From a phage, in NCBI GenBank assembly GCA_018027755.1, contig GCA_018027755.1_4098.1: a DNA stretch of 64,000 nucleotides. One strand, written 5' to 3'. Made by a program: the position numbers and the translations under genes. Positions 28,957 through 33,105 of the stretch are shown piece by piece. Every line of letters starts with the position of its first letter. Positions within the stretch are counted from its first letter, which is position 1. The notes beneath the pieces were generated by a model. It saw nothing but the letters and a program-made list of their open reading frames with translations. It ran no database searches and had not been told where the DNA came from.

Positions 28957-29598
28957 ATGACTAAGCAAGACATATTCAAAACTTTAATTGACATTTTGCG
29001 TCCATCAAAAACTCGTTGTGCGATGGAGTTTGATATTCCTTATGCTGAACGCGTAATCTTTCCACAAGTTAAAGCTGCTGGACTTACTTTGCTTGGAATG
29101 GGGATGTACTCTGTAGTAGTTGAACATAAAAACTATCCTGGACGTGCATTTAAAGTAACCACTTCACGCTGGGATGGTTTTCGTGCTTATGCAAAGTACT
29201 GCATTGAAAACGCAGGAACCAAGTTTCTTCCAGTGATCTACAGTGCCAACGAACAAGGAAACTTTGGATGGTATGAGATGGACAAGTACTATCCTATAAT
29301 TAAACAAAAAAATAATTATGATGACTTTGTTAGTACTAAAATTGGAGATTTATATTCTTATGCACATGCTGGTCAGTACGCTACTTCAGTGAATGATATG
29401 CGTGGAAATTCTGAAGAGATTGCTATTGCAACGGTCGCTGCTAACATCATGAAAGAGTTTCACGGGCGTTTTGTACCAGACATTCATTCAAGTAATGTGA
29501 TGATGGATAAAGATGGCAATGTATTCATTACTGATCCTCTTTCGTGTGATGTACGTAGAGAAATACCAGTTACTGAAGAAGATCCAGTTTTTTATTGA
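28957..29598 (+). CDS. kinase-like phosphotransferase (APH/protein-kinase fold)
   Basis: G-loop-like GMGMYSVV, AFKV (VAIK-like), catalytic-loop-like DIHSSNVMMDKDGNVFITDP; start moved to ATG after AGAGGATAAAGTA. Confidence 0.5.
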   Translation: MTKQDIFKTLIDILRPSKTRCAMEFDIPYAERVIFPQVKAAGLTLLGMGMYSVVVEHKNYPGRAFKVTTSRWDGFRAYAKYCIENAGTKFLPVIYSANEQGNFGWYEMDKYYPIIKQKNNYDDFVSTKIGDLYSYAHAGQYATSVNDMRGNSEEIAIATVAANIMKEFHGRFVPDIHSSNVMMDKDGNVFITDPLSCDVRREIPVTEEDPVFY

Positions 29599-29659
29599 CA
29601 GAACTGATGTTCTGGTGTATTCTTAATAAACCATAAAAATTGCGGTAAAGGATAAAATC

Positions 29660-29941
29660 ATGCGTTCATTTGAAAACTTAATAGGTAAGCATCTTTTATC
29701 TGAAATTGATGCAGACGTTAAAGAATTATCCAAATCAAAAAGTTACATTCATTTGGATGAACTGTTTATTAAGTACGGTGAGATTGGTTTTAAGTCATTA
29801 TTTGTTTTTACTATGAAAGTACATAGTTTAAAGTACTTCGATTTGAGTTCTAAAGATGGTGAACCGAATCTATATTACATGTATTACCTTAAGAACAAAG
29901 ATGAAGCTAATACATTACTCTCTGAATATATATTGGGGTAA
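29660..29941 (+). CDS. hypothetical protein
   Basis: SD AAAGGATAAAATC upstream. Confidence 0.5.
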   Translation: MRSFENLIGKHLLSEIDADVKELSKSKSYIHLDELFIKYGEIGFKSLFVFTMKVHSLKYFDLSSKDGEPNLYYMYYLKNKDEANTLLSEYILG

Positions 29942-29943
29942 AA

Positions 29944-30282
29944 ATGGAACAATATTTTGAATTAATAAACAAAGTATCATTTTATGTAGTATCTTTGGTT
30001 TGGGTGTATTATATGTTTTGCTATATTATTGCATTCTTCCGATATACTACTTTATATGAACGTATCTACTATGATGCCCCAATTTCATTCTTGATGTTTT
30101 GTGCATGTACGTGGGGAATATTAGAAGTACTGATATGTGGGTATAGTACTGATGAATTAAATCTGGTATCGGTGTTGACTGGGTTTTCATTTGTTGTTAT
30201 GATAGCTGCCGTTCCAGTATGGTTGTTCTTTGGACTAGTTCATCGCATTGATATATGGCGTTCTAATATCCCTGAAAAGTAA
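29944..30282 (+). CDS. small multi-TM membrane protein, family M
   Basis: ~112 aa, 3 TM segments, basic C-terminal tail ..RSNIPEK. Confidence 0.55.
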   Translation: MEQYFELINKVSFYVVSLVWVYYMFCYIIAFFRYTTLYERIYYDAPISFLMFCACTWGILEVLICGYSTDELNLVSVLTGFSFVVMIAAVPVWLFFGLVHRIDIWRSNIPEK

Positions 30283-30285
30283 GGA

Positions 30286-30633
30286 TTGGAAATGATTTAT
30301 TACACTAACATGTTTGCCTATGCTGTTGCTTGCATTTACATTGTTTACTTCTTATTCGGTGGAGTACTGTGCTTCTTTAAGTACAAAACGTTGTTCAACC
30401 GAATGTACCCAAATCATCCAATTGTAGTTGTACTTTTGATTCTTTCAGTTTCTCAAATAATCGTTGAAACTACAATGGGTATCAGTAGTGTACATTATAG
30501 TTTTGGCACTATAGTAATTATTACTATGCTTATTGCATACATTTTAGTACTTGGATATGGTATCTTTGGTAATATTGGTATGAAAATGTATCATCGAATT
30601 AAAACATTACGTGATAATCTACCGGAGCGTTGA
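30286..30633 (+). CDS. small multi-TM membrane protein, family M
   Basis: 3 TM segments; tail ..LRDNLPER. Confidence 0.55.
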   Translation: MEMIYYTNMFAYAVACIYIVYFLFGGVLCFFKYKTLFNRMYPNHPIVVVLLILSVSQIIVETTMGISSVHYSFGTIVIITMLIAYILVLGYGIFGNIGMKMYHRIKTLRDNLPER

Positions 30634-30634
30634 T

Positions 30635-30979
30635 ATGTATAATTTGAACCTAATCTCATATATTATAACAACACTGTTTACATTCTATGCCTTTGTTGGT
30701 ATAATCCTACTGTACTTTAAATTTTATAAAGTGTTTAACCGTTTCTATCCTTCAATGGAGAATGAGTTTTTCTTTGTGTTGTACGTAGGTTACACATTAA
30801 TGGCTACATGTTTCACTGTAGCCGATGGTGTCATCGGCATTAAAACTGATTCCCCAAATGGTAGTACGCTGGTTGCATTTATTCTTACTGGATTCCTTGC
30901 AACTTATATTGCCTTCATTACAACATGGTCAGTGGTTGAATTTCTCTTGCGACTACGAAAGAATATGCCGAATCGATAG
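30635..30979 (+). CDS. small multi-TM membrane protein, family M
   Basis: 3 TM segments; tail ..LRKNMPNR. Confidence 0.55.
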   Translation: MYNLNLISYIITTLFTFYAFVGIILLYFKFYKVFNRFYPSMENEFFFVLYVGYTLMATCFTVADGVIGIKTDSPNGSTLVAFILTGFLATYIAFITTWSVVEFLLRLRKNMPNR

Positions 30980-30988
30980 GAGACATAT

Positions 30989-31243
30989 ATGTTTGCGTTG
31001 CGTAATAAAAACACTAAAGAATTATTATGTATTGATACCGTATGGGATTGTGCGGGATCAACTACAGTTCTTGAAGAAGGAACTGGATATTGCGTGTTTG
31101 TTGTTCATGATAGGAATGAACTCGAATTATTACTTGCTGAGTTCAATGCTGGTGGTAATCCTAACAGTACTGAATACCCTGAGATTATCAATCCAGCACC
31201 ACCAGGCTCTTATGAAATTCTACAACTGTGGGAGTTGAAGTAA
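30989..31243 (+). CDS. hypothetical protein
   Basis: SD AGGAGACATAT upstream. Confidence 0.55.
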   Translation: MFALRNKNTKELLCIDTVWDCAGSTTVLEEGTGYCVFVVHDRNELELLLAEFNAGGNPNSTEYPEIINPAPPGSYEILQLWELK

Positions 31244-31623: not shown

Positions 31624-31624
31624 G

Positions 31625-31652
31625 TTGACAAACACATTCAGTACTGTATAAT
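31625..31652 (+). promoter_or_regulatory. sigma70-type promoter with AGTACTG spacer motif
   Basis: ttgacaaacacattcagtactgtataat. Confidence 0.6.
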
Positions 31653-31699
31653 GCTTATCAAGGGGATGAACTTCTCATCCCTACAATCGAGGAACTACC

Positions 31700-32254
31700 A
31701 TGATTACTTTTAAGAAAACTGCTAACCACATCCATGAAATCTACATTAACGGTCACAAAGCTGGCCTTCTTCGTTTACTCGCCCATCATCCTGATGTTAC
31801 CGTATCTGATAATGAACCTAAAGATTGGCGTGTATTTTTCTTTGGAAAGTACAGTGATTTTCAAGTATCAAACCTGAAGAACATTCGTTCAGTATGCACG
31901 TTAACTGAAATTAAAGAAAAGTTAGAAAAAGCATTGAAAACTAATCCAGATGGTGTTCTTCCACCTGATAACTTTGTAGAGAAAGGTTATGCATTAGCTC
32001 ATTTCAAAGATGGTACTATTCAATCTATCAGTACTGAATATGAATATCAATGGACTGAGTACTTCACTTATGGATCGCGTAATACATTGATGGCTTCACG
32101 TAGTAAATTGGAAGAAGTACTGACTCGTATGAATGAACGCGAACGTCAATTTTATGACAAACCAGAAATGTGGAGTTCAACTTACATTGACCGTATTGAC
32201 TATGTTATTATGACTCCAATCTTTGACACTGCTTACTATGATTCTTTGAAATAA
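31700..32254 (+). CDS. hypothetical protein
   Basis: SD GAGGAACTACC upstream. Confidence 0.55.
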   Translation: MITFKKTANHIHEIYINGHKAGLLRLLAHHPDVTVSDNEPKDWRVFFFGKYSDFQVSNLKNIRSVCTLTEIKEKLEKALKTNPDGVLPPDNFVEKGYALAHFKDGTIQSISTEYEYQWTEYFTYGSRNTLMASRSKLEEVLTRMNERERQFYDKPEMWSSTYIDRIDYVIMTPIFDTAYYDSLK

Positions 32255-32265
32255 GGATAACTTAT

Positions 32266-32442
32266 ATGAAACTACGTACTCGTAATCGACTGATGGATGC
32301 ACTGTACCATGAACAGCTTTCACTGAATGAAGTGAAGCGACAGTTAATGTACACATATCTGTTACCCGCTCGCATTGCAAAACAACGTGCTAAAGAATTG
32401 CTGAAAGAAGCAATCGAGTACTGGGAATCTGATTCGTACTAA
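32266..32442 (+). CDS. small hypothetical protein (58 aa)
   Basis: Hand-translated ORF MKLRTRNRLMDALYHEQ... after AAGGATAACTTAT; below the track size cutoff. Confidence 0.4.
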   Translation: MKLRTRNRLMDALYHEQLSLNEVKRQLMYTYLLPARIAKQRAKELLKEAIEYWESDSY

Positions 32443-32470
32443 TTGTCACGTTAATTAAGTGAGGCGATAA

Positions 32471-32722
32471 ATGAAAATTTTATTAGTTCTAATACTACTA
32501 ATTGTTTTACCATTTACGTTAGTATCCCCTGAACTTGCATGGAATGTGTTTGTGTACTTACTATGTACTATTGTAGTAAATGGTATCTTGTTCTTAGTTC
32601 TATTCATAAATGGAATAGGACACGGTGGAGGATGGACCAGTACTGCTGATATTGTACATAAAACCACTATGTCTTTATTTGTAGTGTGGAATTTATTCTG
32701 GACTTGGTTTGTGTTCTTCTAA
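32471..32722 (+). CDS. small membrane protein
   Basis: Two or three TM segments; SD GAGGCGATAA upstream. Confidence 0.5.
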   Translation: MKILLVLILLIVLPFTLVSPELAWNVFVYLLCTIVVNGILFLVLFINGIGHGGGWTSTADIVHKTTMSLFVVWNLFWTWFVFF

Positions 32723-32733
32723 TTAAAAAAAAT

Positions 32734-33105
32734 ATGAATATAGATTTGAAAGGTGCAACACGAACTGTCATACTCATTGGGGAATATGCTATCAAGATTC
32801 CAACCTTTAAAAGTTGGAAGCTATTCTTAACAGGGATGATAGCTAACCTCAATGAACGTTCGTGGATGCAGTACTCCAAGCGTAGTAATAGTGGTATCTG
32901 CCCTACGTTGTGGTCATCATGTACTGGACTAGTAACTGTACAGAAACGTTGTAAGCCAGTACAACATAGGGGTTTATTTTGGGTGGAGTTGTGTGCTTTA
33001 GCATTGGATTCAGAGTTAAGTACTGACTTCTTCTATTCAGATGCGAAGCCAGAAAACTTTGGGTATCTGTGTGGTAAGTTGGTTAAACTTGATTATGGAG
33101 ATTAA
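32734..33105 (+). CDS. mini protein-kinase-like protein (N-lobe plus catalytic loop only)
   Basis: YAIKIP (VAIK-like Lys), SDAKPENFG (HRDLKPEN-like), KLDYGD (DFG-like) in canonical order and spacing; protein ends right after the DFG-like motif. Confidence 0.5.
   Translation: MNIDLKGATRTVILIGEYAIKIPTFKSWKLFLTGMIANLNERSWMQYSKRSNSGICPTLWSSCTGLVTVQKRCKPVQHRGLFWVELCALALDSELSTDFFYSDAKPENFGYLCGKLVKLDYGD

Follow-up and report, generated by a model that had tools for sequence, protein, structure and literature searches.

The DNA analysed here, a 64,000-nucleotide stretch from a phage (contig GCA_018027755.1_4098.1 of assembly GCA_018027755.1; hereafter the window), contains two genes, ORF A and ORF B, whose products had been proposed from the nucleotide sequence alone to be small kinase-like proteins (hereafter, the original prediction). 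Both open reading frames are present on the + strand at the positions predicted (Table 1). When the region 28500-33500 was compared with phage records by megablast, 41 matches were obtained that displayed 88-99% identity. All the matches inspected were Asteriusvirus genomes, with E. coli, Salmonella or Klebsiella as hosts (121Q, PBECO4, phAPEC6, G17, Sharanji and ELP-22), and judged by its sequence the window originates from an Asteriusvirus jumbo coliphage of the 121Q/PBECO4/phAPEC6 group. Both genes are already annotated in related Asteriusvirus genomes. The orthologue of ORF A in phage 121Q, gp205, carries the GenBank label "protein kinase; inhibitor of host transcription...", and the one in Sharanji is WNN14432.1; the orthologues of ORF B are 121Q gp215 ("hypothetical protein" in GenBank) and Sharanji WNN14422.1. 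Each of the two proteins has a kinase-like fold that ends at or just past Hanks subdomain VII, and each retains the residues involved in ATP/Mg binding and phosphotransfer; the half of the canonical C-lobe that binds substrate (Hanks subdomains VIII-XI) is lacking from both. We consider it probable that ORF A and ORF B are independent of each other and that each specifies a stand-alone, minimal protein-kinase-like enzyme, probably expressed early and possibly directed at the host.

The start of ORF A at position 28957 is the correct one and is preferred over an alternative ATG at position 28924, because homologues are 213 aa long and have the N-terminus MTKxEIF, a GAGGA Shine-Dalgarno sequence is located 8 nt 5' of the ATG at 28957, and the ATG at 28924 falls within the -10 hexamer of a promoter-like site. 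The G-loop-like segment and the catalytic-loop motif reported in the original prediction are both present, and the translation of region 29479-29538, DIHSSNVMMDKDGNVFITDP, is exactly as quoted there. Seven residues are invariant in an alignment of 22 sequences (G47, G49, K66, D175, H177, N180 and D193), and D193-P194 is kept throughout the clade alignment. The protein is made up of an N-terminal three-helix extension, an N-lobe, a D-x-H-x-x-N loop and a DPL(S) motif that replaces DFG; the chain ends 20 residues past the DFG-equivalent D193, and the predicted structure has a kinase-like fold. ORF A matched PHROG 15752, 'protein kinase' (E 2.5e-97), and the T7 kinase PHROG 2828 (E 8.8e-17). Our local Pfam copy contained no Pfam-A model matching ORF A; PF27024, a model newer than this copy, is a precomputed match on all ORF A homologues.

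Alignment of the ORF A family with T7 gp0.7 (T7K; taken from NC_001604) using hhalign resulted in a probability of 98.5% (E 2.9e-15) over T7K residues 61-230. This provides strong sequence-based support for the view that ORF A is a true homologue of the gp0.7 kinase domain, and the comparison with T7 gp0.7, made originally as an analogy, holds for ORF A as literal homology. According to the alignment, G49 of ORF A corresponds to G76 of T7K, for which a catalytically dead G76F mutant has been described (PMC13645617), K66 corresponds to the β3 lysine K93, and the catalytic-loop residues D175, H177 and N180 correspond to D195, H197 and N200. The DFG equivalent of ORF A, D193-P-L-S196, corresponds to DPVS at positions 213-216 of T7K, with Leu in place of the T7K Val, and in both proteins the kinase domain ends ~20-27 residues past the DFG-equivalent Asp. 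ORF A had been labeled 'APH-type'. This label is imprecise because ORF A is homologous to the T7 kinase, and ORF A did not combine a match to an APH family model with an APH-like best structural match. T7K residue S216, a reported inhibitory autophosphorylation site that is conserved in all variants according to the T7K paper, has S196 as its counterpart in ORF A; this position is a Ser in the phage studied here and a Gly or Ala in most metagenomic relatives.

The C-terminal shut-off (SO)/DNA-binding domain of T7K (residues 243-359), which steers the kinase activity toward nucleic-acid-binding proteins, is absent from ORF A; the alignment ends at T7K residue 230 of 359. A jumbophage clade of T7K homologues, which includes that of phage G17, has lost the SO domain and has a DP(V) motif in which the Val is less conserved, was named in a 2026 Nature paper (PMC13645617), and WNN14432.1 was termed a T7 kinase homologue in the Sharanji genome paper (PMC11895373). 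Thus, ORF A is already known (GenBank "protein kinase" label, Bartolec et al. and the Sharanji genome paper); it constitutes one more member of the published jumbophage T7K clade and nothing new beyond that. ORF A is a member of the T7 kinase family cut down to its kinase domain; its most likely role is the phosphorylation of host proteins at an early stage of infection, and it is a kinase which, because the C-terminal DNA-binding/shut-off domain is missing, would not be steered to nucleic-acid-binding proteins as T7K is.

The start of ORF B at position 32734 agrees with that of all its homologues (M-x-I-D...). Translation confirmed that its product contains, in canonical order and spacing, the VAIK-, HRDLKPEN- and DFG-like motifs that had been noticed before (YAIK, SDAKPEN and DYG): YAIK (K21) is followed by NLNER (E41), SDAKPEN (D103, K105, N108) and KLDYGD-stop (D120). 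The spacings are kinase-like, being 20 residues for K21-E41, 5 for D103-N108 and 12 for N108-D120, and the last of these is the same as in TTK according to the profile alignment described below. The chain ends 3 residues past the metal-binding D120, and subdomains VIII-XI (activation segment/APE and helices αF-αI) are absent. The AlphaFold model of ORF B (pLDDT 90.9, pTM 0.80) contains, in this order, β1-β3, αC (residues 28-43), β4-β5, αE (79-92), a short helix and β7-β8, after which the chain ends. In this model K21 is positioned in β3 (strand 18-23), E41 in αC, D103-N108 between the short helix and β7, and D120 directly after β8 (strand 115-118). The model indicates that the key residues occupy canonical kinase topological positions and that ORF B has a protein-kinase-like fold with an N-lobe β-sheet, αC, αE, catalytic loop and β7-β8. 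Helix αF anchors the hydrophobic core of canonical kinases. The αE helix of ORF B (R79-D92, GLFWVELCALAL) is hydrophobic on every side, and sequence and secondary-structure assignment together point to the αE face, left uncovered in the absence of αF, as a candidate oligomerisation or partner-binding surface.

Table 1. Positions of ORF A, ORF B, their kinase motifs and the putative promoters preceding them (window coordinates).
Feature	Position	Strand	Description	Basis
ORF A	28957..29598	+	213 aa, T7-kinase (gp0.7/T7K)-family putative minimal protein kinase without shut-off domain	PHROG, hhalign
ORF A nucleotide-binding elements	29095..29154	+	G-loop-like GMGMYS and AFK lysine; G47-M-G49, β3 K66	
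ORF A catalytic loop and DFG equivalent	29479..29544	+	D175-I-H177-S-S-N180; D193-P-L-S196	hhalign to T7K
ORF B	32734..33105	+	123 aa, minimal kinase-like protein, PHROG 4301	Profile match, fold model, conservation
ORF B variant phosphate-binding loop	32752..32763	+	G7-A-T9-R10	Family alignment
ORF B β3 Lys and αC Glu	32794..32856	+	K21 (32794-32796), E41 (32854-32856)	Conservation, model
ORF B catalytic loop	33040..33057	+	D103-A-K105-P-E-N108, Ser/Thr-kinase type D-x-K-x-x-N	Clade and TTK alignment
ORF B DFG equivalent and C-terminus	33091..33105	+	D120-Y-G, D123, stop (33103-33105)	Sequence
Hairpin and sigma-70-like promoter	28893..28928	+	Terminator-like hairpin; TTGACT-18-TATGAT, extended TG; directly 5' of ORF A	
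Perfect sigma-70 promoter sequence	31625..31652	+	TTGACA-16-TATAAT; heads five-gene unit 31700-33376, ORF B fourth	

The figures obtained for the ORF B model with known kinases were 8.7 for JAK, 8.4 for APH(2''), 8.2 for TTK, 8.1 for BRAF, 8.0 for PknB, 7.7 for Rio2, 7.4 for Bud32, 7.1 for both OspG and Ark1, and 6.5 for HopBF1; the 194-aa protein H6X4G3 of phage RaK2 was also a structural match. Searches of PDB sequences with single sequences or with a 15-sequence profile yielded nothing. With a profile based on 136 sequences, the 22 best distinct matches were all TTK/Mps1 (E 0.06-0.14), and the alignment was in register (DAKPENFGY..KLDYG versus DLKPANFLI..LIDFG). Structure prediction and profile searches had been named with the original prediction as tests that could refute it, and neither did so; the former gave kinase-like folds for both proteins, and in the latter the motif alignment holds, strongly for ORF A, and marginally but in register with TTK for ORF B. 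The structural matches of ORF B include APH, SAICAR synthetase and Ark1, and ligase genes occasionally adjoin its homologues, as might be expected if ORF B were a small-molecule or nucleic-acid kinase that acts on RNA/DNA ends, a nucleotide second messenger or a metabolite. We regard this as quite improbable. A D-x-K-P-E-N loop with its lysine is a signature of Ser/Thr protein kinases, and the ORF B loop is of this D-x-K-x-x-N type; the best profile matches are all to TTK, which is a protein kinase; and no general association with repair genes exists, there being no neighbor family common to the 41 loci analysed (see below).

ORF B matched a single PHROG, number 4301 (function unknown; E 3.5e-42), covering positions 40-167 of the 225-position profile. 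A search of 1.84 billion representatives with the ORF B profile identified 1,212 proteins at E<=1e-3, of which 639 at E<=1e-10; counted as clusters at 50% identity, the family thus has at least 1,212 members. By tblastn, the family was found in 119 phage records, and it is present in T4-like, FelixO1-like, N4-like, rV5-like and PaMx11-like phages, in many jumbo phages and in lambdoid Salmonella prophages. Among the matches listed only three ORF B homologues were labeled as kinases (those of pEa_SNUABM_5, Kc263 and AH04; Ser/Thr kinase). The close homologues are 118-127 aa long, and nearly all of 150 family members listed have a length of 110-135 aa and the C-terminus ...(V/I)DYG(S/N/D). In the family alignment (136 diverse sequences, mean column identity 19%), the tail past D120 is 3 residues long in 91 members and 2 in 17, and it does not exceed 3 residues in 108. 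The original prediction had left open whether ORF B is minimal or truncated. Because in most members of its large family the chain stops 2-3 residues past the DFG-type Asp, ORF B is complete, a minimal kinase-like protein and not a fragment, so that the first of these terms applies and the second does not. The dN/dS values were 0.13-0.26 for ORF B and 0-0.26 for both kinase genes together, and both genes are under purifying selection.

Taken by themselves, the lack of a Pfam match and the empty single-sequence searches of the PDB might suggest that the ORF B motifs are a chance resemblance, or that the gene is the decaying remnant of a longer one encoding a kinase. Against this stand the gene length, conserved across at least 1,212 cluster representatives, the purifying selection, the confidently predicted fold, the invariant K21-E41-D120 triad and the absence of kinase-like sequence downstream, which together make it hardly credible. 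Pfam searches of the 136 family members gave only three weak matches, all to PIP49_C (best E 0.0011), and ten longer members of the family contain no Pfam domain and hence offer no fusion clue to function. The hit P0070 was a repetitive false positive. The ~120-residue family that ends at the DFG motif falls outside all curated models searched, and literature searches for a described phage mini-kinase family found no paper describing it. ORF B therefore stands for a large unannotated phage family that has the full set of Ser/Thr kinase catalytic residues in ~120 residues.

PHROG 4301 is also matched by homologues from Bas45 and PaMx11 and by Sharanji WNN14351.1 (E 1e-41 for the latter, with 1.4e-49 also among the longer members). 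The longer kinases of this PHROG include WNN14351.1 (194 aa), PaMx11 gp73 (142 aa) and a 209-aa 'protein kinase domain-containing protein' of Ralstonia phage RP12, and this longer paralogue type has previously been termed protein kinase by others. They share with ORF B a D-x-[KR]-x-x-N ... [LV]-D-Y-[GA] core and the absence of a C-lobe, and hhalign gave a probability of 89.9% between WNN14351.1 and the ORF B family. Unlike ORF B, with its G-x-T-R variant of the loop and no tail, the longer members feature a G-x-G-x-x-x-x-V loop of the canonical type, extensions at the N-terminus, a longer β5-αE insert and ~20 residues past DY[GA]. Because the longer members keep the canonical loop and the ~20-residue tail, ORF B is the most stripped-down form in a family in which a kinase identity has now and then been noted for the longer members. 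WNN14351.1 is encoded at positions 6027-6611, on the - strand, of Sharanji OR545507.1 (L046) and has the motifs IGAGSSRIVF, VIKV, RDIRKQN and LDYG. Asteriusvirus genomes thus have three minimal kinases in total; a 194-aa kinase of the WNN14351.1 type is not encoded within the window. A homologue of ORF B, bas45_0262 (126 aa, 42% identity), is present in the T4-like phage Bas45 (PaulHMueller; L012, 2501-2881) of the BASEL collection.

The ORF B stop codon and the next ATG (position 33107) are one base apart, and for this reason we examined whether a C-lobe is supplied in trans. That ORF B spans only part of the PHROG 4301 profile, as given above, would likewise fit the idea that it is half of a split kinase, the other half of which is encoded by an adjacent gene such as the translationally coupled 89-aa ORF at 33107-33376. 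The latter ORF, however, belongs to a different PHROG (8563) and has no match to PHROG 4301, and the additional positions of the PHROG 4301 profile correspond to the N-terminal extensions and ~20-aa tails of the longer paralogues and not to a C-lobe. Scanning of the window with both family profiles revealed no further match to either, and no kinase-like continuation downstream of ORF B in any frame. Moreover, when the ORFs within ±4 kb of the kinase gene at 41 loci (IMG/VR, GenBank phages and prophages) were clustered, no neighbor family was common beyond closely related genomes, and flanking genes differed completely. The ORF B homologue is positioned between Rz and the terminase gene Nu1 in lambdoid Salmonella prophages, upstream of terminase in a 69-kb phage, next to rnlB in the T4-like phage JS10, between ipI and a tRNA cluster in Bas45, and amid replication and repair genes in PaMx11, the FelixO1-like phage SPJ41 and a Vequintavirinae phage. 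One cluster of neighbors, present at five loci, was rejected as a partner since it consists of the shadow ORF antisense to the kinase gene. The kinase gene behaves like a solitary accessory gene that moves horizontally. A split kinase is therefore very improbable and, like a fragment or a chance resemblance, can be considered effectively excluded.

The relationship between the two proteins was addressed by comparing their family alignments with hhalign. No match was obtained between the ORF A and ORF B families, nor was any sequence relation detectable between the ORF B family and T7 gp0.7, and because of these null results we treat ORF A and ORF B as independent families that have only the superfamily fold in common.

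The kinase superfamily and minimal kinases that lack subdomains VIII-XI are already established. Bud32, Rio, HopBF1 and the archaeal RNA kinase Ark1/ArkI are each at least about 170 residues long, have no significant sequence match to ORF B and, to our knowledge, all keep helices past the DFG motif. Subdomains VIII-XI are missing from OspG and NleH; OspG nevertheless shows robust kinase activity, and binding of a partner activates it (PMC12756638). The absence of these subdomains is shared by OspG and ORF B; the crystallised OspG chain is 169 residues long, compared to 123 for the whole of ORF B. Sequence identity between them is only 14%, and hence there is no evidence for a specific relationship. 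In addition, OspG uses E2~Ub as partner, whereas ORF B acts within bacteria, which have no ubiquitin system.

Sites that conform to at least 11 of the 12 consensus positions were scored as near-consensus sigma-70 promoters. The window contains 30 of these, nine of them perfect (12/12), against 4.0±1.9 in shuffled sequences. Nineteen of the 30 are located on the + strand of the 1-34 kb region, a block of ~80 small + strand genes that includes both ORF A and ORF B, and most of them lie in short gaps ahead of small + strand ORFs. This region looks like a large early-gene region that is read by the host RNA polymerase. ORF A is presumed to be the first gene of an early transcription unit, and the perfect promoter sequence upstream of ORF B precedes the five-gene unit in which it is located (Table 1). 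Because both kinase genes are situated in this small-gene block dense with near-consensus sigma-70 promoters, they are probably transcribed early by the host RNA polymerase. Such early timing would fit a role of both proteins in host takeover or anti-defence.

We infer that ORF A and ORF B are both active kinases. As for ORF B, the most likely interpretation of its sequence features is that of an active, early-expressed minimal phosphotransferase. It belongs to the short form of PHROG 4301 and comprises no more than an N-lobe of five strands with αC, followed by αE, the catalytic loop, β7-β8 and the metal-binding Asp; Mg-ATP would be bound via the K21-E41-D120 triad, and transfer of the γ-phosphate would depend on D103, K105 and N108. 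Without an activation segment or peptide groove, ORF B would be either promiscuous or dock its substrate or partner on another surface, for instance the hydrophobic αE face that is normally under αF. More generally, the missing peptide-binding platform may favor promiscuity in minimal forms.

The conservation of the catalytic residues bears directly on this interpretation. In the close clade of ORF B the residues G7, T9, R10, K21, E41, D103, K105, P106, N108, D120 and G122 are invariant. In the wider alignment only the columns of K21, E41 and D120 are (136/136), while G7 and R10 of the loop are present in 134 members and K105 in 119; position 103 is D in 90, E in 45 and K in one, and position 108 is N in 94, S in 41 and T in one. 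Several observations weigh against ORF B and ORF A being active, early-expressed kinases. In roughly a third of the wider ORF B family Glu/Ser takes the place of the catalytic Asp/Asn pair, which could mean a different chemistry or nucleotide binding alone. The sequence link between ORF B and canonical kinases is sub-significant (E about 0.06), and ORF B has no Pfam (E<=10), NCBIfam or PADLOC match, the NCBIfam and PADLOC output being noise. Instead of the canonical GxGxxG loop of subdomain I it has G7-x-T/S-R10, and because both this loop and αF are missing, its stability and activity as a monomer are uncertain. Early expression is deduced from consensus matches alone, our literature searches found no biochemical data on ORF A, ORF B or any member of PHROG 4301, and according to the authors of PMC13645617 it has yet to be established what the jumbophage T7K homologues do and how promiscuous they are.

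Some of these observations would also be explained if ORF B were an inert pseudokinase or nucleotide-binding module that serves as a scaffold, decoy, inhibitor or sponge, for example of a host protein or an immune signalling nucleotide. Strict invariance is limited to three nucleotide/metal-binding residues, the Glu/Ser replacements affect the catalytic loop, the entire substrate-binding C-lobe is missing, and the gene occupies variable accessory slots that are typical of small anti-defence proteins. Pseudokinases, however, usually lose the acidic and Lys residues of the catalytic loop, and in the ORF B family position 103 is acidic in 135 of the 136 members and the Lys is retained in the large majority, while the clade of ORF B itself has D103, K105, P106 and N108 without exception. 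Furthermore, OspG is an active kinase even though it also lacks subdomains VIII-XI (PMC12756638). We therefore consider a pseudokinase rather unlikely, and favor an active minimal phosphotransferase.

A more far-reaching possibility, which we put forward tentatively and do not regard as the probable outcome, is that the PHROG 4301 short form is the smallest self-sufficient protein-kinase-fold enzyme known (~120 residues, ending at subdomain VII). It would work without αF-αI, either as a homo-oligomer or with a host protein as surrogate C-lobe, much as E2~Ub serves OspG, and would be a widespread, horizontally mobile phage effector whose targets, host or immune proteins, are phosphorylated with low sequence specificity. 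If true, it would constitute a second, independent solution to the T7 kinase strategy. If active, the ORF B family would define the minimal structural requirement for phosphotransfer by a kinase fold, show that αF is dispensable for a kinase, and add to T7K a second phosphorylation weapon that is widespread among phages. The family is tractable, in that ORF B is a small, soluble-looking protein and a homologue is available in the E. coli phage Bas45. The T7K study (PMC13645617) describes a kinase survey of the BASEL collection that was limited to T7K homologues and the Doc kinase of P1, and the Bas45 homologue therefore fell outside it.

Several other features of the window were noted. The hairpin/promoter upstream of ORF A is one copy of a repeated composite element, composed of a G+C-rich hairpin, the stem of which contains a -35-like TTGAC(T), and of a T-run and a -10-like hexamer that follow it, such that terminator and promoter are combined in one unit. 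Its 25-nt core, AAAGGTTGACTTCGGTCAGCCTTTT, is identical at positions 28894-28918 and 23047-23071 (two exact copies, with 0 expected by chance), and variants of the element are located at 33808-33843 and 27052-27081. ELP-22, 121Q and Sharanji contain a ~1.04-kb block of three small genes between the gene for a virion structural protein and the kinase gene, which is absent from the window. In ELP-22 a 49-nt hairpin/promoter repeat is present on both sides of this block (L001, 1873-1921 and 2960-3008), and the window has a single copy (28872-28920). As two copies flank the block in ELP-22 and one is left in the window, the sequences suggest that the block was gained or lost via recombination between the regulatory repeats. 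Just 3' of the ORF B operon, at 33384-33409, the window lacks ~0.97 kb containing the endonuclease V gene (denV) that is present in ELP-22 and 121Q (L001, 7467-8440). An HNH homing-endonuclease gene is located at 27080-27622 on the + strand (PHROG 59, E 5e-37), and the segment 27000-27678 that contains it appears to be an insertion since nothing equivalent to it is present at this place in ELP-22.

Between the two kinase genes, at 29944-30979 on the + strand, three tandem paralogues encode small hydrophobic proteins of ~112-122 aa that match PHROG 19285, two strongly and one weakly. The - strand of region 38540-52874 contains a tandem array of ~12 similarly sized genes (245-449 aa, most ~370-450 aa). 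The three genes sampled from this array all match PHROG 4219, 'regulator of chromosome condensation' (RCC1-like β-propeller repeats), and the Ser, Thr and Tyr content of the array products is unusually high (26%). Depletion of these residues in the early proteins was considered as a signature of a promiscuous kinase (17.5% versus 26.0%); the direction fits, yet the difference is uninformative because the comparison set is this same RCC1-like repeat array, and the comparison is thus confounded by protein class.

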